Assembly: GCF_035285525.1 (NCBI RefSeq)
Contig: NZ_JAYKGW010000250.1
Span: 1 to 15,541 of the forward strand
Origin: Okeania sp.
GTDB lineage: Bacteria > Cyanobacteriota > Cyanobacteriia > Cyanobacteriales > Microcoleaceae
Direction of reading: 5' to 3'
DNA: 15,541 nt
The first letter of the stretch is position 1, and every line of letters starts with the position of its first letter. The translations under genes were made by a program, and so were the position numbers. The notes below the pieces were generated by a model. The model was not told where the DNA came from and searched no databases. It saw nothing but the letters and a program-made list of their open reading frames with translations. Positions 2,774-15,541 of the stretch are shown here, one piece after another.

Positions 2774-2916
2774 AATTACAGCGCTTTTCTTTCTTGATGA
2801 ACCACAACATCACCATAACCAAAATTCTGTAGGGACGTTTCGCTGCGCGACATGAAAAGCATTTTTGTTATGCAACCTCCCTACTGTGGTTTACCGACAT
2901 GAAAACCGCTGTAATT
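2774..2916. mobile_element. MITE-like element with 10-bp terminal inverted repeats and an internal GTAGGGACG...CCCTAC hairpin
   Basis: AATTACAGCG (2774-2783) is the exact reverse complement of CGCTGTAATT (2907-2916). The internal 56-nt hairpin unit at 2829-2884 (GTAGGGACGTTTCGCTGCGCGACATGAAAAGCATTTTTGTTATGCAACCTCCCTAC) is almost identical to 11293-11347. The left 60 nt recur at 5198-5276. I did not identify a target-site duplication. Confidence 0.55.
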
Positions 2917-3993: not shown

Positions 3994-5016
3994 ATGAAAA
4001 CCAAATTCATAGTTCTATTTTTAGCCACAATTTTGGCAACTATTGGTTTGACAACTGCCACACAAAATCAAGTTAATGCCAATAGTATTTTTAGCTCTGA
4101 ACTTTTCGATGATTTTGAAGAAGATGGAGCCAAACCATCTCAGAATCCTGCACCGAAACCTCAGCGTACTCCAAATAATGGAGGTGTGATACGAGTACCT
4201 GTTAGTAGTTCATCTCAGCCTCAGTCAGCTCCAAATAATGGAGGTGTGATACGAGTACCAGCTAGTAGTTCATCTCAACCTCAGTCAGCTCCAAATAATG
4301 GAGGTGTGATACGAGTACCAGCTAGTAGTTCATCTCAACCCACTCGGAATAATCAACCTGTAGCTCAACCAACCCAAAAGGCTGCTACTGGAACTACTCA
4401 AGCCAAAGTTGCTTGCGTTTCCCAGGGAAATGGTAATTATGCAACTGTTGTGCGGAAAGCTGAAGGCGAAACAGTCTTAATCAGTTGGAAGAATCGCAAT
4501 CATGGCTCCGAATATACACCTGAAAAAAGATGCAACATGGTAACAGAGAAATTACAAAGCTTTATTTCTGCAAATGGTAACGACATAGGGAACCTATTAT
4601 TAACAACAGGTTATGTTAAAGGTAGCCCTGTAATTTGTGTTGTTAACGAGGGTCCCCTTGGTTGTAACTCTACGAATCAATTATTAACTCTCAGCGGAGA
4701 AAATGCAGAAGATCCTGCTAAAACATTAGCTCAATTTTTAAACCTAGCTGAGGGCAACATTTCTGGTAATCCCATCCAAGAAAAAAAGGGTAAAACAGTT
4801 GTATCATTCAATACTGCTGTAGATAACTCCTTTGGCAAATCTGGCTCCATTTTAGAAGGTGGAGGTTTGAACATTGCTGCTTGCGATCCAACCAAGACTT
4901 CCTTAATTGTGTTTGAGAATAGTAAGGTATGTGTAGAAACCAAAGAACCATTAAAAGCAGGCAAACGCTATTACTTTAATTCTGCTACAGGTAAAATTCA
5001 AAGACAACCTATTTAG
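3994..5016 (+). CDS. Secreted COP23-domain protein with three 20-aa tandem repeats and the shared C-terminal GKRYYFN module
   Basis: RBS TAGGAG lies 7 nt upstream of the ATG. Signal peptide MKTKFIVLFLATILATIGLTTATQNQVNA. The peptide APNNGGVIRVPASSSSQPQS occurs 3 times. The central region VACVSQGNGNYATVVRKAEGETVLISWKNRNHGSEYTPEKRCNMVTEKLQSF...TGYVKGSPVICVVNEGPLGCNSTNQLLTLSGENAEDPAKTLAQFL matches my recollection of the COP23 (circadian oscillating protein) family pattern: Cys, then W...TPE.RC, then ViC...C...LlfTL. C-terminus: ACDPTKTSLIVFENSKVCVETKEPLKAGKRYYFNSATGKIQRQPI. Confidence 0.85.
   Translation: MKTKFIVLFLATILATIGLTTATQNQVNANSIFSSELFDDFEEDGAKPSQNPAPKPQRTPNNGGVIRVPVSSSSQPQSAPNNGGVIRVPASSSSQPQSAPNNGGVIRVPASSSSQPTRNNQPVAQPTQKAATGTTQAKVACVSQGNGNYATVVRKAEGETVLISWKNRNHGSEYTPEKRCNMVTEKLQSFISANGNDIGNLLLTTGYVKGSPVICVVNEGPLGCNSTNQLLTLSGENAEDPAKTLAQFLNLAEGNISGNPIQEKKGKTVVSFNTAVDNSFGKSGSILEGGGLNIAACDPTKTSLIVFENSKVCVETKEPLKAGKRYYFNSATGKIQRQPI
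4168..4340 (+). repeat. Near-perfect in-frame 60-bp tandem repeat (about 2.9 copies) inside the COP23-domain gene
   Basis: Copies begin at 4168, 4228 and 4288. Copies 2 and 3 are identical until the sequence diverges after 4340. Copy 1 differs at a few positions. Each encodes (T/A)PNNGGVIRVP(V/A)SSSSQPQS. Confidence 0.95.
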
Positions 5017-7269: not shown

Positions 7270-7297
7270 CCCGACTCCCGACTCCCTACTCCTGACT
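7270..7297. repeat. STRR-like heptamer array (CCCGACT/CCCTACT/CCTGACT, 4 units)
   Basis: Read directly. It is flanked by the inverted 11-mers TAGACATCTCC (7212-7222) and GGAGATGTCTA (7310-7320). The reverse complement GGGAGTAGGGAGTCG recurs at 11084-11098. Confidence 0.8.
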
Positions 7298-7371
7298 CCC
7301 TCTTTTCTGGAGATGTCTATTGACGATCTGGTTTCCTGTCGTCGATAGGAACGACAGTTAAACCGGATTTT

Positions 7372-7591: not shown

Positions 7592-7741
7592 ATCAGGACT
7601 TACGCATAATCGACGAGTTTTGGTCATTTGAGATTGCTATCCTGACGGACTGCAACCCATTCATGTCGCGACTCGAAACGCTGTCGCTGGCGCTGCGAGT
7701 CGCGCCATGACAGAAATGCGTTGTGTTGCGTAAGTCCTGAT
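7592..7741. mobile_element. 150-bp MITE-like element with perfect 15-bp terminal inverted repeats
   Basis: ATCAGGACTTACGCA (7592-7606) is the exact reverse complement of TGCGTAAGTCCTGAT (7727-7741). An internal second hairpin pairs CATGTCGCGACTCG with CGAGTCGCGCCATG (1 mismatch). No transposase is present. The 69-aa ORF 7593..7802 lies over this element. Confidence 0.65.
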
Positions 7742-9938: not shown

Positions 9939-9960
9939 TAATTACATATTTTTTGGACTT

Positions 9961-10086
9961 CCTACTCTCCCTTCCCTACTCTCCCTTCCCTATTCCCTAT
10001 TCCCTACTCTCCCTTCTCTATTCCCTACTCTCCCTTCCCTATTCCCTATTCCCTACTCTCCCTTCCCTATTCCCTGTTCCCTCTTT
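9961..10086. repeat. STRR-like heptamer array, 18 units (CCTACTC / TCCCTTC / CCTATTC)
   Basis: Read directly: 126 bp of uninterrupted 7-bp periodicity, pyrimidine-only apart from single A or G positions. It lies immediately downstream (minus sense) of the glycosyltransferase stop at 10116. Confidence 0.95.
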
Positions 10087-10115
10087 CAACTAAGAAATTA
10101 ATTTTGCACGACTAC

Positions 10116-11006: not shown

Positions 11007-11101
11007 AAAATATTTCTTGAGTAATGTATCTAAATTCTCAAATACTGCTGATCTTCACAAACATCCGTAAAATTATCAAGGCAGGGAGTAGGGAGTCGTT
11101 T

Positions 11102-11124
11102 CAGTTATCAGTTATCAGTTATCA
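11102..11124. repeat. STRR-like heptamer array (CAGTTAT x3)
   Basis: Read directly. It is adjacent to GGGAGTAGGGAGTCG (11084-11098). Confidence 0.8.
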
Positions 11125-11292: not shown

Positions 11293-11347
11293 GTAGGGAC
11301 GTTTCGCTGCGCGACATGAAACGCATTTTTGTTATGCAACGTCCCTA
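11293..11347. repeat. Dispersed hairpin element GTAGGGACGTTTCGCTGCGCGACATGAAACGCATTTTTGTTATGCAACGTCCCTA
   Basis: It is nearly identical to 2829-2884. The ends GTAGGGACGT and ACGTCCCTA form a 9-10-bp stem. It lies about 150 bp downstream of the DndB-like gene. Confidence 0.8.
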
Positions 11348-11497
11348 ATAGCTTTTTGATTTTTCAGGAACCGTGCTTTCTAGACTGAAAATATGGTACT
11401 TTTTAGACTTAGAAAATGCTAAAAAATTTATCTGTAAAGGCTTTAAAATTTAATCAGCAAGCCCTAATTATTAATTATTAATTATCAATTATTCATC

Positions 11498-13105
11498 CTA
11501 ATTTCCAGGCAAAATTTCTGGCAATCCTACCTTTTTTAATTCCACAAATTTACCCTGAAAATCTACAGCTTGCTCTTCTCCAACTCGCCTTGCTTCTGCC
11601 AACTCTCGACGAATTTCTGCTCGTTCCATTTTGTCAGAAATTCCACCTAATATATAGATAAATAATCTCATTGCTAAATTTCTACCAGCTACGGACATTC
11701 GCTTCCGATTAAAATCATATAAAACTCCATACCAAATTGAGTCAGGAAATTCTATTCCACTTAAACCACCATCTACATCATACTTATTTAATTTATCAAA
11801 AACCTCCTCTAAAGAAAAGCCTTTTTTATATATTAAATTTCCTATAGCTTCCGCAAAAGCAATTTGTCCGACGGGGCGAAATAAAACATGACCTTCTCCT
11901 GGTTTTGTCTCAAAACTAAATCTTCTTAATTCTGGAGTTTCAGTACCATTTTCTAATCTTGAATAACTAGGTAATTTAGCTAAATAATTCCAAAATTCCA
12001 TAAATTCTTTCACCCCCTTTTCTAATTCTTCTTCTTCAGGACGCATGGGAATTAAACCTTTATCTGAGGGTTTCCAATAGGGATAATGAAGTTTTAAATA
12101 TCTTTCGGACATTTCTTGTAATGCTTGCAGAGTTGTTAGAACGGTAGATTTAGCTGCTACGGTTGCACTATCCCAATTTACTCTGGGATTTCTATCATCT
12201 TTATCTTTTAAAATAGGATGATAAATTGCTATTTTTCTGGCGACAATAGCAAATCCATCATCCTCATTTAATAATGCTAATTGCCCTTTACTTAGTTTTA
12301 CTGCGGTTAAATTTACATGAGCAAAAACTGACCTTACTCTTCGTCGCGCTTGTTCTCTTGTTTCGCCTTTTACTACTGCTGGAATAAATTCTATGCCTAT
12401 TTGTTCGTATGCTAATTTTTGGATTTCTGGTAATTCAAGATGATTAATTTCGGTTAAATCATCAATAGTAATTGGTTCGCCTACTGGTTTCTTTTGTTTG
12501 TTGTATCTTGGTAATCTACCAGTTTTTATTAGTTCCATTAATCCTTGGATTCCCATCAGTCGATGTTGACCGTCTAAGGCGAATACTGCTACTTCTAAAC
12601 GTAGGTCTAATAATCCTACTTTTCCTTCTGAATCTAATGGTAAAAAGTCAGTTGCGGATTTATTTGCTTCACCTTTTTTATTCCATTCTTCTGCTTTGGG
12701 ATTATCTACCCAACTAGGGCTGATTACTGCTAATACTGCGGGAAATTTATGGGATTTTCTGGTTGCTAAATATAGGGTTAATGGAGTTTGACGAGACCAG
12801 TCTAGAGGTCGTTGTTGAATTTCGTCTATTGTTTCTCCATCTCGAATTATGTTGTCGGTTTCTATGTCAAATTTTTGCCGAAATAATGGTAGTTGGGAAG
12901 CAAAACGTACACGACTATCTAACCATTCTAATGTGACGGAACCGATGTAAGCTTCTGTGTTTCCCATCATGGTTTTTTGTACTAATAATCTATCGTCTTT
13001 ACCTATATGTTTGTTTAAGAGAATGGCGATCGCTTCTCTTTCTCGATTATCATTTTCTAAAATTTCTTTTGCTATTTCTGATGTGGTTTTATTGGCGTTT
13101 TTCAT
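11498..13105 (-). CDS. dndB: DGQHR-domain protein, DndB-like (DNA phosphorothioation-associated), unusually long at 535 aa
   Basis: It contains the eponymous motif VAVFALDGQHRLMGIQGL. It also has an upstream QQRPLDWSR...LYL element and a downstream VFAHVNLTAVKLSKGQLALLNEDDGFAIVARKI element, both typical of the DGQHR/DndB (ParB-like fold) family. It is divergent from a dndC-containing transcription unit. Confidence 0.8.
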   Translation of the reverse strand: MKNANKTTSEIAKEILENDNREREAIAILLNKHIGKDDRLLVQKTMMGNTEAYIGSVTLEWLDSRVRFASQLPLFRQKFDIETDNIIRDGETIDEIQQRPLDWSRQTPLTLYLATRKSHKFPAVLAVISPSWVDNPKAEEWNKKGEANKSATDFLPLDSEGKVGLLDLRLEVAVFALDGQHRLMGIQGLMELIKTGRLPRYNKQKKPVGEPITIDDLTEINHLELPEIQKLAYEQIGIEFIPAVVKGETREQARRRVRSVFAHVNLTAVKLSKGQLALLNEDDGFAIVARKIAIYHPILKDKDDRNPRVNWDSATVAAKSTVLTTLQALQEMSERYLKLHYPYWKPSDKGLIPMRPEEEELEKGVKEFMEFWNYLAKLPSYSRLENGTETPELRRFSFETKPGEGHVLFRPVGQIAFAEAIGNLIYKKGFSLEEVFDKLNKYDVDGGLSGIEFPDSIWYGVLYDFNRKRMSVAGRNLAMRLFIYILGGISDKMERAEIRRELAEARRVGEEQAVDFQGKFVELKKVGLPEILPGN

Positions 13106-13764
13106 GGCTGATTCTGGAAAATATTTTTAACGACTTTTGAAAATTAATAAATATATAAATTTTTGTTAACAAAAGTTTTTAAAAATTGTTTAGTTAGTAT
13201 AATTGTTAATTGTAGGTTATTTTTTATCATATACTATTTATTATGTCAAGACTAAGTAATGAAAAATGAGGGATGAATATTGATATCTTTTTTTAGCATC
13301 AAAGTAATAAATATTGAGCAATCAATAGTATAAGCATTTAGCAGTCAGCTATTTATTTTAGTTTGAGAGAAAAAGCTTTATTAGTTGAAGTAAATTGAAT
13401 TTTACTATCAAAGTATTTCCTGGGGAATGCGCTCGTATTCAGTATTTAGCTTTGAAACTTAATAACTTACTAAAGTTAGCTAATAGTCTTTTTCTTTCCT
13501 GCGGAATCTAGGCAAACATAAATTTTAATTGTCTTTAGAGAATAATTTATCCTTTCTGTTAATAACTCAAAGCTGTATTAACAGAGTTCCTCTGAAAGAA
13601 GCTAGGTAATTAATTTTATAATTTTCAAAAGGAGGAATCAGAATGGTTATGGTAAATTTAATTTTAGTAGTTATTTAAGATTAAATCTGGCATACATATT
13701 CAGTTAATCTGCTGATTTATGACAAATAAATAGTGAAATATAGATGTTTTGCCTAGTGTTATAA

Positions 13765-14749
13765 ATGAGTAAAAATCAAGAATCAAACAGGGAAAAAAAT
13801 TTAGCATACTACTGTCAACGTTTTAGCGAACTTAAGACAAATAAAGATAAAAAATTAGGTACTGCCAAACACAAACCTATTTTACTTTTATCTGTAATTG
13901 ACTTAATTTCGGAAGGTTTAATTCAAAATAATCAGATAACTGTTTCAGAAGAATTGATTAATACTTTCAATAAAAATTGGAAAATACTATATTCTGGTTC
14001 TTATAAAAGTGGTTTGTACTATCCCTTTTATCATTTGCAGAATGACGGTTTTTGGAATGTAAAATTCAACTCTGACTTTGTTAATACTTTGCCAGTAAAG
14101 AAAAATTACAAAAGAACACCGACCAGAATCACTAAAGAAACTTAAAGAAGTAGTTGACTATGGCAGCTTTGATGTGGAATTATTTGAACTACTGGCAGAT
14201 AAAAATTATAGAAAAGAATTAACAGATGTACTAATTGCAACTTGGTTCTCAGTCAACCAAAAAGATACTCAAAAACTCATTACAATTAATCAAAAATTTC
14301 ATGGAAATGATAAGCAAGAAGAACAACAAAAACATCCTAAATTATATTTCAGAAAATCTGTACTAAGAGATGCTGTTTTTCGTAAAGCAGTTGTGCATAG
14401 CTATAACTATAAATGTGCTTTTTGTGGAATCAAAGTTACTATGTCAATTGAGCAAAATATTGTAGATGGAGCGCATATAAAACCATTTGCTAAATTTTAT
14501 GACAATAGAATAGATAACGGCATATCACTTTGTAAAAATCATCATTGGGCATTCGATAAAGGTTTATTTACAATCTCTGATGATGATGATTATAAAATTA
14601 TCGTTTCCAATAACTTTCAAGAAGAATCACCAAATTCTAAACCAATGAAAGAATTTGATGGTAATCGACTTTGGTTGCCTGGAGAAAAAAAATTTTTTCC
14701 TAGAATAGAAGCCTTAAAATGGCATCACAATAATGTATTTATATCATAA
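13765..14749 (+). pseudogene. HNH endonuclease (HNH_2-type) with an N-terminal HKP...YYPF..LQNDGFW DNA-reader domain (candidate sulfur-binding, ScoMcrA-like), interrupted by a +1 frameshift
   Basis: Two adjacent ORFs make up this gene: 13765..14145 (126 aa, reader domain) and 14174..14749 (191 aa, HNH). The HNH motif is CAFCGIKV...VDGAHIKPF...NGISLCKNHHWAFDKGLFTI. The second frame is already open from 14099 and reads RKITKEHRPESLKKLKEVVDYGSFDVELFELL..., running straight into the listed GTG start. Removing one A from the A5 run at 14101-14105 fuses both ORFs into one protein of about 327 aa. Confidence 0.75.
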
Positions 14750-14793
14750 TCATAGAAAATAAATTTGACTAATATTTGAGGATATTTATAAAT

Positions 14794-15541
14794 ATGAAAG
14801 GTATACAACAATCTTTATTTCCAAACAGAACCGCTGCCGAATTAGTAGAAGACATAAAAAAGTTAACTACAGAAATTCAAGAACTATATTGTTTAGATTC
14901 TATTCCCTGGGTTATTGGATATTCAGGCGGTAAAGATAGCACTGCAACATTGCAACTAATATGGAATGCTATAGCCGGACTTCCCGAAAAAAAACGAGCT
15001 AAAACTATTCACGTTATTACTACAGATACATTAGTAGAAAATCCTATCGTTTCGGCTTGGGTAACTAACTCTTTAAAGTTAATGGAAGAAGCTGCAAAAA
15101 ATCAGAAACTACCCATAGAATGTCATTTATTACGACCAGAAGTTAAACAAACATACTGGGTAGGACTACTTGGTAAAGGATACCCAGCCCCACGCCATAG
15201 ATTTCGCTGGTGTACTACCCGTTTAAAAATCGATCCTTCTAATCTTTTTATTCGTAATGTTGTCAGAAATAATGGAGAAACAATAGTTGTTTTAGGAACT
15301 CGTAAAGCCGAAAGTTCTAACCGTGCAGCAATAATGAATAAACGAGAAATTGGGAGAACTCGAAACCATTTGAGTCCTCATCCTAGTCTAATTAATTCTT
15401 TACTTTATACCCCTATTGAAGACTGGCGAACTGATGAAGTTTGGCTATATTTAATGCAGTGGGAAAATCCTTGGGGAAATAGTAATCAAGATTTACTAGC
15501 AATGTATCGAGGTGCAACGGAAGATAATGAATGTCCGTTAG
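14794..15541 (+). CDS. dndC: DNA phosphorothioation sulfurtransferase DndC (PP-loop ATP pyrophosphatase / PAPS-reductase-like), N-terminal 249 codons; continues beyond the window
   Basis: I translated this by hand because it is not in the ORF track (there is no stop in the window): MKGIQQSLFPNRTAAELVEDIKKLTTEIQELYCLDSIPWVIGYSGGKDSTATLQLIWNAIAGL...HVITTDTLVENPIV...YWVGLLGKGYPAPRHRFRWCTTRLKIDPSN...VVLGTRKAESSNRAA...YTPIEDWRTDEVWLYL...NPWGNSNQDLLAMYRGATEDNECPL. The SGGKDS PP-loop and the GYPAP..FRWCT.RLKI.P signature are classic DndC. The ATG at 14794 lies 44 nt after the HNH stop, with GAGGA 12 nt upstream. Confidence 0.92.
   Translation, partial: MKGIQQSLFPNRTAAELVEDIKKLTTEIQELYCLDSIPWVIGYSGGKDSTATLQLIWNAIAGLPEKKRAKTIHVITTDTLVENPIVSAWVTNSLKLMEEAAKNQKLPIECHLLRPEVKQTYWVGLLGKGYPAPRHRFRWCTTRLKIDPSNLFIRNVVRNNGETIVVLGTRKAESSNRAAIMNKREIGRTRNHLSPHPSLINSLLYTPIEDWRTDEVWLYLMQWENPWGNSNQDLLAMYRGATEDNECPL

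Follow-up and report, generated by a model that had tools for sequence, protein, structure and literature searches.

Results

Gene content of the right-hand part of the window

The 15,541-bp stretch of Okeania sp. DNA analysed here (the window) is one entire contig of a metagenome-assembled genome, and its right-hand end breaks off within a set of dnd genes for phosphorothioate (PT) modification of DNA. We examined the region from 11498 to 15541, whose assignment as the left part of a cyanobacterial-type dnd PT cluster is well supported; it holds a divergent DndB-like gene, a gene for a protein that joins a sulfur-binding domain (SBD) to an HNH nuclease domain (SBD-HNH), here split into two open reading frames (ORFs), and the start of dndC. 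The features are as follows.

11498–13105, minus strand: DGQHR-domain / DndB-like gene, 535 aa (TIGR03187, PF14072), divergent from the nuclease–dndC unit
13106–13764, no strand: divergent spacer, 659 bp, GC 24.9%, between the DndB-like gene and the ATG at 13765
13765–14145, plus strand: 5' part of the SBD-HNH gene, 126-aa ORF, frame 1 (NF045808 positions 6–87)
14094–14107, plus strand: frameshift site, one surplus base in an A-rich run (A5 at 14101–14105)
14100–14749, plus strand: 3' part of the SBD-HNH gene, frame 2, with the last SBD helices, linker and HNH (PF13391, NF045808 157–283)
14794–15541, plus strand: dndC, first 249 codons, truncated by the contig end (TIGR03183, PADLOC DndC)

The 249-aa fragment scored 380.7 bits on the DndC equivalog model TIGR03183 (cut-off 290.4) and 383.8 bits on the PADLOC DndC model, as against 51 bits on BrxP and 35 bits on SspD, and by these profile scores it is a bona fide dndC start. 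A first-pass annotation made from the letters alone had proposed a dnd locus at this position, in agreement with these scores, and had raised placement of the fragment in a non-Dnd PAPS-reductase family as counting against the proposal; the profile search instead gave DndC. The 535-aa ORF matched the TIGR03187 DGQHR domain (192 bits; cut-off 58.85) and the Pfam DndB family PF14072 (52.7 bits; cut-off 29.1) and reached 20 bits on the DndB equivalog TIGR03233, where the cut-off is 328; its divergent orientation and 659-bp separation are as first described.

Relatives of the locus were collected by scanning one genome per species with an alignment of the nuclease family, and the best 80 of 469 confirmed matches make up the loci counted below (L numbers where one must be told from another); all but one are cyanobacterial. 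DndB-like orthologues of 520–533 aa were detected in 67 of the 80, on the strand opposite dndC in every case, and DndD in 61.

Look-ups by exact protein, made to extend the contig, returned two short Logan contigs only, both lying inside the window, and none for the 191-aa ORF described below. The relatives indicate what follows the contig edge. Full-length DndC (694 bits) and DndD (701.9 bits on TIGR03185; cut-off 245.85) are encoded in the nearest relative, L007, and DndD lies 0.6–3.6 kb 3' of dndC in those syntenic Okeania-clade loci for which long enough DNA was fetched, so that the dndD predicted to lie past the edge has its counterpart there. The spacer between the two genes also varies from 0.6 to 3.6 kb across Okeania loci; in Okeania sp. 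SIO2C9 (L002 12614–14810) it is filled by a 2.2-kb array of 136-nt tandem repeats. The expectation of a DndFGH-type restriction partner was not borne out: no ORF of DndF/G/H size was present in about 6 kb 3' of dndD in L007, the four window proteins gave no PADLOC match to DndF/G/H, Pbe or SspE, and neither dndA nor dndFGH adjoins this cluster.

The gene ahead of dndC encodes a putative PT-reading nuclease

Mechanical ORF calling placed a 191-aa ORF directly 5' of dndC, with a GTG start at 14174 and its end at 14749, 44 nt before the dndC ATG at 14794. This ORF matched Pfam PF13391 (HNH_2; 48.8 bits) and scored 97 bits on NF045808, the NCBIfam model named "phosphorothioated DNA-binding restriction endonuclease". 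The preceding 126-aa ORF encodes most of an SBD and gave a faint match to PF26340 (DNA-SBD_ScoMcrA), a family that was also matched by the intact homologues; these are 310–333 aa long and carry PF26340 and PF13391 only. The NF045808 matches, three-frame translation and protein alignment agreed that the two ORFs are the N- and C-terminal parts of one protein of about 325 aa. Where the first-pass annotation saw a plain HNH gene, single and intact, at the head of the dndC unit, the position was right, whereas the gene itself proved to be two ORFs of a frameshifted SBD-HNH gene.

A family profile built from 32 members matched the Hga SBD bound to PT-DNA (8H0L) with E = 2.9e-24, and its C-terminal part matched TagI. 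An AlphaFold model (mean pLDDT 65; block means about 66–94 over most of the SBD, and the HNH part poor) was used for the SBD fold only, since its confidence was merely moderate; the top Foldseek matches were 8H0L (target-normalised TM 0.83) and the SprMcrA SBD (7CCJ), and the inter-domain segment was modelled as helices plus a low-confidence linker. Domain searches found no SRA/SAD domain between the SBD and HNH parts, and Pfam, NCBIfam and PADLOC searches found no NTPase domain.

The sulfur cavity is formed by H25, K26, L75, P76 and H79 in Hga (PMC10602919), and by H116, R117, Y164 and P165 in ScoMcrA, where K is often found in place of the R (PMC6224610). The corresponding residues of the window protein are H36, K37, Y86, P87 and H90, and among 84 copies of the family these positions are occupied by Y/H, K (81/84), Y/L, P (84/84) and H (77/84). 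The window protein also retains the catalytic D/H/N/H/H residues of the HNH domain and the Cys ligands, as do 83–84 of the 84 copies. It is thus well supported, from sequence, that the gene 5' of dndC encodes a two-domain protein with a predicted PT-sulfur-cavity SBD and a catalytically complete HNH, and the reading surface and cutting site of the family both look functional.

A one-base frameshift in the nuclease gene

Past about codon 113 the 126-aa ORF runs in the wrong frame, to a premature stop at 14143–14145. In DNA alignment L007, L009, L011 and L015 are each one base shorter at the A-rich run, and deleting one A from the window restores the reading "...LPVKK ITKEHRPESLKKLKE..."; the repaired protein matched NF045808 end to end with 127.4 bits, a score that lies among those of intact homologues (121–135) and does not reach the cut-off of 180. 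By these alignments the nuclease gene of this Okeania genome is most likely a pseudogene, broken by a single extra A; the dnd modification genes show no lesions in the part that the contig covers.

An error of sequencing or assembly, or a frameshift bypassed during expression, would leave the window gene functional, and we consider this distinctly improbable. A one-base homopolymer change in a metagenome-assembled genome is the kind of change that such an error would leave, and the NCBI annotation has just the 191-aa piece, as a normal protein ("HNH endonuclease [Okeania sp.]", 99% identity to the 191-aa ORF). The identical frameshifted sequence is found, however, in Logan contigs of run SRR19514071 (including L086), which are 100% identical to the window over 11456–13362 and 13339–14419; both frameshift-bearing assemblies may come from the same reads, which counts against the pseudogene reading. 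In sister genomes the same gene is broken by nonsense substitutions, a 5-bp deletion and a 118-bp element insertion; lesions of these kinds cannot arise from errors in reading homopolymers, which makes the lesion in the window credible as well. As for bypass, a run of five A residues is short for transcriptional slippage, and no recognised +1 frameshift signal is evident at it.

Repeated loss of the nuclease within the Okeania clade

Eight distinct lesions were recorded, seven of them in 7 of 11 Okeania-clade loci and the eighth in 1 of 72 loci elsewhere (L044; Fisher p = 6e-7). The Okeania-clade lesions are as follows.

Window: +1 A frameshift
L004: stop at codon 214
L006: 118-bp insertion with inverted-repeat ends
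L009: 5-bp deletion
L011: +1 C frameshift and stop
L015: stop at codon 129
L065: -1 frameshift and stop

Metagenome contigs added a copy with two stops (L088) and a remnant consisting of the last 50 codons (L087), and L165 is a further broken copy or remnant. Among named strains, Okeania hirsuta PAB10Feb10-1 and Planktothrix agardhii have an intact gene, Okeania sp. KiyG1 and Dapis BLCC M172 a broken one. The insertion in Okeania sp. SIO3B5 (L006 10916–11033) interrupts the 3' end of the nuclease gene, has the ends GGGTGCATCTC...GAGATGCACCC with TTCCCTG heptamers inside, and looks like a miniature transposable element.

The DndB-like, DndC and DndD genes were free of lesions at the Okeania-clade loci with a broken nuclease; seeming DndC stops in L012 and L079 were discarded, being natural stop codons. 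Pairwise dN/dS was 0.23–0.43 for the nuclease, 0.08–0.24 for dndC and 0.08–0.15 for the DndB-like gene. Together with the lesion pattern, these ratios indicate that the nuclease was under selection until recently and is now disappearing from one lineage after another.

Two haplotypes of the nuclease plus the 5' half of dndC exist in Okeania. Compared over window positions 13627–15541, L002, L004, L005, L006 and L065 have 75–79% nucleotide identity to the window, and L007, L011 and L015 have 88–91%. The DndB-like gene beside both haplotypes shows a uniform 87.5–91% identity to the window, and at synonymous sites the two haplotypes have diverged about twice as far as the DndB-like gene.

Linkage of the nuclease to dndC

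At each of the 80 best loci the nuclease gene has a DndC homologue no more than 2 kb away. In 47 of them the nuclease is on the same strand and 20–90 nt 5' of dndC (median 46 nt), as in the window; in the remaining layout (33/80, mostly Nostocales) it converges on the 3' end of the DndB-like gene, with dndC on the other side. The layout noted as non-canonical is therefore so only by comparison with the Streptomyces and Salmonella clusters; within cyanobacteria it is a standard arrangement, shared by the 47 loci, and the DndB-like gene is opposite dndC in 67/67. Gene order in Okeania sp. SIO2C9 follows the window (GlcNAc transferase, DndB-like, nuclease, DndC) and continues with DndD.

The reverse test used 80 metagenome loci found via DndC, 49 of which had enough upstream DNA. 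The nuclease was present in 15 of these 49 (11 of the 34 with the full 8 kb), some of the 15 being remnants. From 80/80 in one direction and 15/49 in the other, the nuclease depends on the dnd genes and not vice versa. This linkage has two limits. It was read from the best 80 of 469 confirmed matches, and among more distant paralogues (40–45% identity), carried on cyanobacterial plasmids, association with dnd does not always hold: the paralogue on Nostoc PCC 7120 plasmid pCC7120delta (L167) has no dnd genes adjoining, and the one on a Picosynechococcus PCC 8807 plasmid (L168) is near dndD and dndE.

In Microcystis (L016, L017, L034, L036, L054, L072 and L084) only the SBD-HNH and dndC pair was detected, and the fetched flanks (up to 10 kb per side) held no DndB-like, DndD or DndE gene. 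In L084, the sole Microcystis locus for which annotation was read, the pair sits amid housekeeping genes, including those for a photosystem reaction-centre protein and gyrase subunit A.

A second module lies 5' of the nuclease in many loci of Nostocales, Microcoleus and Phormidium, exemplified by L083 5849–9987: a 59-aa ORF, a 690-aa DndD-like ABC ATPase (157.7 bits on TIGR03185, below cut-off) and dnd_assoc_4 (TIGR04062, 204 bits). Co-travel of the nuclease with dnd_assoc_4 or with the second ABC ATPase was considered and rejected, there being no association (6/5 vs 14/9, p = 1.0).

The position directly 5' of dndC in an apparent operon, and the Microcystis loci with the pair alone within ±10 kb, would suit a nuclease that is itself part of the PT-writing machinery, for example as a supplier of nicks or a maintenance reader of hemi-modified sites. 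We give this next to no credence: about 70% of cyanobacterial-type dnd clusters lack the nuclease, it is pseudogenised while the dnd genes are under strong constraint, and canonical Dnd systems function without it. The mcrA-like gene of BREX type 4, between brxP and brxC, is likewise dispensable for PT synthesis according to a 2026 paper (PMC12914056). As described, that brxP-mcrA-brxC system of Bacteroides salyersiae resembles the present one in placing a McrA-like gene among PT writers in a host with PT-modified DNA; it differs in its writer (BrxP/BrxC, not DndC/DndD) and phylum.

Discussion

Proposed role of the SBD-HNH protein

In relatives with an intact gene, the SBD-HNH protein would serve the PT-writing module as its cognate reader-nuclease: docking of the SBD on the host's own PT marks would control cleavage by the HNH domain, leaving self DNA with marks untouched while invading DNA without them is cut. 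Taken together, the identification of the locus and a cognate reader-nuclease mechanism have, in our estimate, slightly better than an even chance of being correct. The particular form in which PT docking restrains cleavage, a self/non-self model, we would put somewhat short of even. Self-sparing nucleases that sense PT are known, namely SspE (PMC9646914) and DndI (PMC11662687), and a similar logic has been proposed by comparative genomics for HNH proteins containing an SBD, there called a wHTH, in Dnd loci (PMC10853773). One-way dependence on dndC, and loss of the nuclease with the writer kept, fit the self/non-self model. The nuclease would be dispensable and probably costly, which would explain both its presence in about one-third of cyanobacterial dnd clusters and its repeated loss in Okeania.

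Several points weigh against this reading. The biochemically characterised SBD nucleases ScoMcrA, SprMcrA, EcoWI and Hga all cut PT-DNA and are toxic together with a matching dnd system (PMC7461809, PMC10602919), so the cleavage polarity of the tested enzymes is opposite to the proposed self-sparing. It also counts that the protein lacks an NTPase switch like that of SspE or DndI. We found no report of PT measured in a cyanobacterium with this cluster. Although dndE had been expected past the contig edge, tblastn gave no match to it within 10 kb at any Okeania-clade locus, and a database search for DndE (4,639 matches) had no Okeania among the 120 listed, whose near-equal scores make that listing uninformative on the point; elsewhere in cyanobacteria DndE does follow DndD at many loci, among them those of Planktothrix, Nostoc, Microcoleus and Phormidium, the tested Planktothrix copy scoring above cut-off. 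With dndE not found nearby, the local system in Okeania may not write PT. Finally, L077 has a frameshifted dndC and L035 a stop in dndD, each beside an intact nuclease, and these lesions, if real, would not be tolerated under a strict restriction-modification logic. In the genome of the window itself the question of function is moot, as the nuclease gene is broken.

The same cleavage polarity is the starting point for a classical type IV enzyme, one that would cut only foreign PT-DNA with modification contexts unlike the host's marks, linkage serving to keep writer and reader alleles compatible. All tested SBD nucleases are PT-dependent cutters, Lutz et al. explained rare co-occurrence with dnd by differing contexts, and two divergent Okeania haplotypes of the nuclease with the dndC 5' half, beside a uniform DndB-like gene, are what such compatibility might produce. 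The window-type allele also has a 10-aa insertion, within which the frameshift falls, and by alignment with Hga it maps to the L4-loop region, which in the SBDs of ScoMcrA and SprMcrA determines base specificity. A type IV enzyme can do without resident dnd genes, however, yet dndC adjoins all 80 closest family members; the closest solved relative is the sequence-promiscuous Hga SBD, and immediately ahead of the short L4 loop of Hga the family consensus has four residues fewer than Hga, which argues against base-specific avoidance of self. We regard this explanation as unlikely.

Strict dependence on dndC and PT-dependent cleavage are both accounted for, and equally well, if the protein is a suicide or abortive-infection effector, which would use host PT sites as handles and shred the chromosome on sensed infection or failure of the system. 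This would also account for the cost, the recurrent inactivation and the tolerated dndC and dndD lesions beside an intact nuclease, and such a mode has been raised as possible for Dnd-linked nucleases (PMC10853773). Against it, the same-strand spacing of 20–90 nt to dndC in 47 loci implies co-expression with the writer, and no trigger or inhibitor gene co-varies with the nuclease (dnd_assoc_4 and the second ABC ATPase, p = 1.0). We think it quite unlikely.

To return to the cognate reader-nuclease, its broadest version would make the SBD-HNH family the missing ancestral restriction arm of cyanobacterial Dnd, reading host PT, with the losses in Okeania recording an autoimmune cost. We offer this tentatively and doubt that it holds in full; if true, it would mean self-reading by a domain so far known only from enzymes that attack PT-DNA.

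Relation to known systems

The protein resembles ScoMcrA, SprMcrA and EcoWI (NF045808) in its N-terminal SBD with H-K and Y-P motifs and its C-terminal HNH_2 domain; unlike them it has no SRA domain and a sub-cut-off NF045808 score, and the window copy is broken. The characterised type IV enzymes come from genomes without a matching dnd cluster, whereas dndC adjoins the gene at 80 of the 80 loci of the present clade. Lutz et al. (2020) reported that fewer than 3.6% of predicted PT-dependent enzymes are dnd-linked and left these cases unresolved (PMC7461809).

The nearest described class is that of wHTH(=SBD)+SAD(SRA)+HNH proteins, found in the Dnd loci of 698 taxa, mostly without DndFGH, and proposed as alternative restriction components (PMC10853773, NAR 2024). 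As PT-binding HNH proteins in Dnd loci the two are alike, whereas that class has three domains and lies immediately 3' of the dnd genes, and the cyanobacterial family has two domains in about 320 aa and lies 5' of dndC or beyond the DndB-like gene. The main text of PMC10853773 makes no mention of cyanobacteria, and no cyanobacterial names occur in those parts of the supplementary-table text of PMC10853773 and PMC7461809 that were available. Because the 2024 survey had already reported SBD(wHTH)+SRA+HNH nucleases in Dnd loci, what we describe is not a new system; it is a variant of a recognised, uncharacterised association, set apart by its two domains, its place 5' of dndC, its cyanobacterial clade and its signature of decay.

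With SspE and DndI (PMC9646914, PMC11662687) the family shares genetic coupling to PT writers and an expected reading of host PT; these two have NTPase switches (DUF262/GTPase, ATPase) and PT-sensing surfaces unrelated to the SBD, and no NTPase was detected in SBD-HNH. As for the canonical dndBCDE clusters of Streptomyces lividans and Salmonella (dptBCDE), the window DndC and the relatives' DndD pass the equivalog cut-offs, whereas the DndB counterpart here is about 150 aa longer, divergent and of DGQHR type, and the nuclease heads the dndC unit.

PT-dependent nucleases and PT writers are usually held to be mutually exclusive, and rare co-occurrences have been dismissed as outliers. Cyanobacterial dnd clusters in turn have been described as "solo" modification, a description that underlies the idea of an antioxidant beginning for PT; Jian et al. 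(2021) stated that cyanobacteria have no PT restriction components and mentioned neither HNH nor SBD, and we found in the literature no experimental study of SBD-HNH as a dnd-cluster partner. An SBD-HNH clade with its residues intact, found only beside dndC among the 80 best loci, is a concrete candidate for a restriction partner. A PT reader-nuclease next to a PT writer is a genuine paradox, and one open to test; it poses the question of polarity, that is, whether PT binding licenses or blocks cleavage.

Base composition and the question of an acquired island

The first-pass annotation took the region from about 11.5 kb rightward to be distinctly AT-rich, flanked on its left by dispersed repeats, and consistent with an acquired island. 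GC was 0.351 for the DndB-like gene and 0.364 for dndC, near the window mean of 0.363 (left part, 0.378); it was low only in the spacer (0.249) and nuclease gene (0.28–0.29). In all 84 loci compared, nuclease GC was below that of the adjacent dndC (mean gap 7.6 points), so that low GC belongs to the gene family and does not point to recent transfer. Synteny at the locus extends across Okeania and Dapis, with the GlcNAc-transferase neighbour kept in seven other Okeania-clade genomes, and cyanobacterial dnd genes are monophyletic and vertically inherited in published phylogenies (PMC8569181). The flanking repeats exist (11101–11124, 11293–11347 and 11465–11493; heptamer arrays plus a 55-nt palindromic element) and mark no island border, since the same kinds occur in other spacers of the window (2829–2883, 2930–2957, 7270–7300, 7660–7680 and 9947–10113). 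An acquired AT-rich island was rejected on the composition, synteny and ordinary dispersed repeats together; the locus is not a recent island.

The divergent spacer

Within the spacer, 279 bp (13328–13606) are specific to the window, being absent from the closest relatives L007 and L011, and no second copy occurred in any fetched locus. The leader that follows, about 150 nt 5' of the nuclease gene (13607–13764), is conserved in both Okeania haplotypes and holds a GGAGG motif and then a short, hydrophobic mini-ORF of 11 codons (MVMVNLILVVI, 13643–13678); in an alignment read by eye the mini-ORF has 26–27 codons in L002 and L004. Between 13000 and 14900 no terminator-like sites were found, and promoter-like sites were no more frequent than in shuffled sequence.

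Left-hand genes and repeats of the window

An Rfam scan of the window matched nothing. The cyanobacterial HIP1 octamer GCGATCGC occurs six times in the window. The left 11 kb carries ordinary genes, for an OprB/SLH porin, a COP23-like protein, two trypsin-like proteases, a methyltransferase and the GlcNAc transferase. The 55-nt palindromic dispersed element (GTAGGGACGTT...AACGTCCCTA) has copies at 2829–2883 and 11293–11347 (96% identity) and a partial inverted copy at 7660–7680, all three in spacers. An array of 9/18-nt period (CCTTGTCTA, about 12 copies) occupies 7–159 at the contig start, within an ORF that runs off the end, and one of 7/14-nt period (TTCCCTA, about 14 copies) lies at 9947–10113, just 3' of the GlcNAc-transferase gene. 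The COP23-like ORF (3994–5016) holds three tandem 60-nt repeats at 4157–4340, 88–100% identical, which would encode a 20-aa segment three times over.

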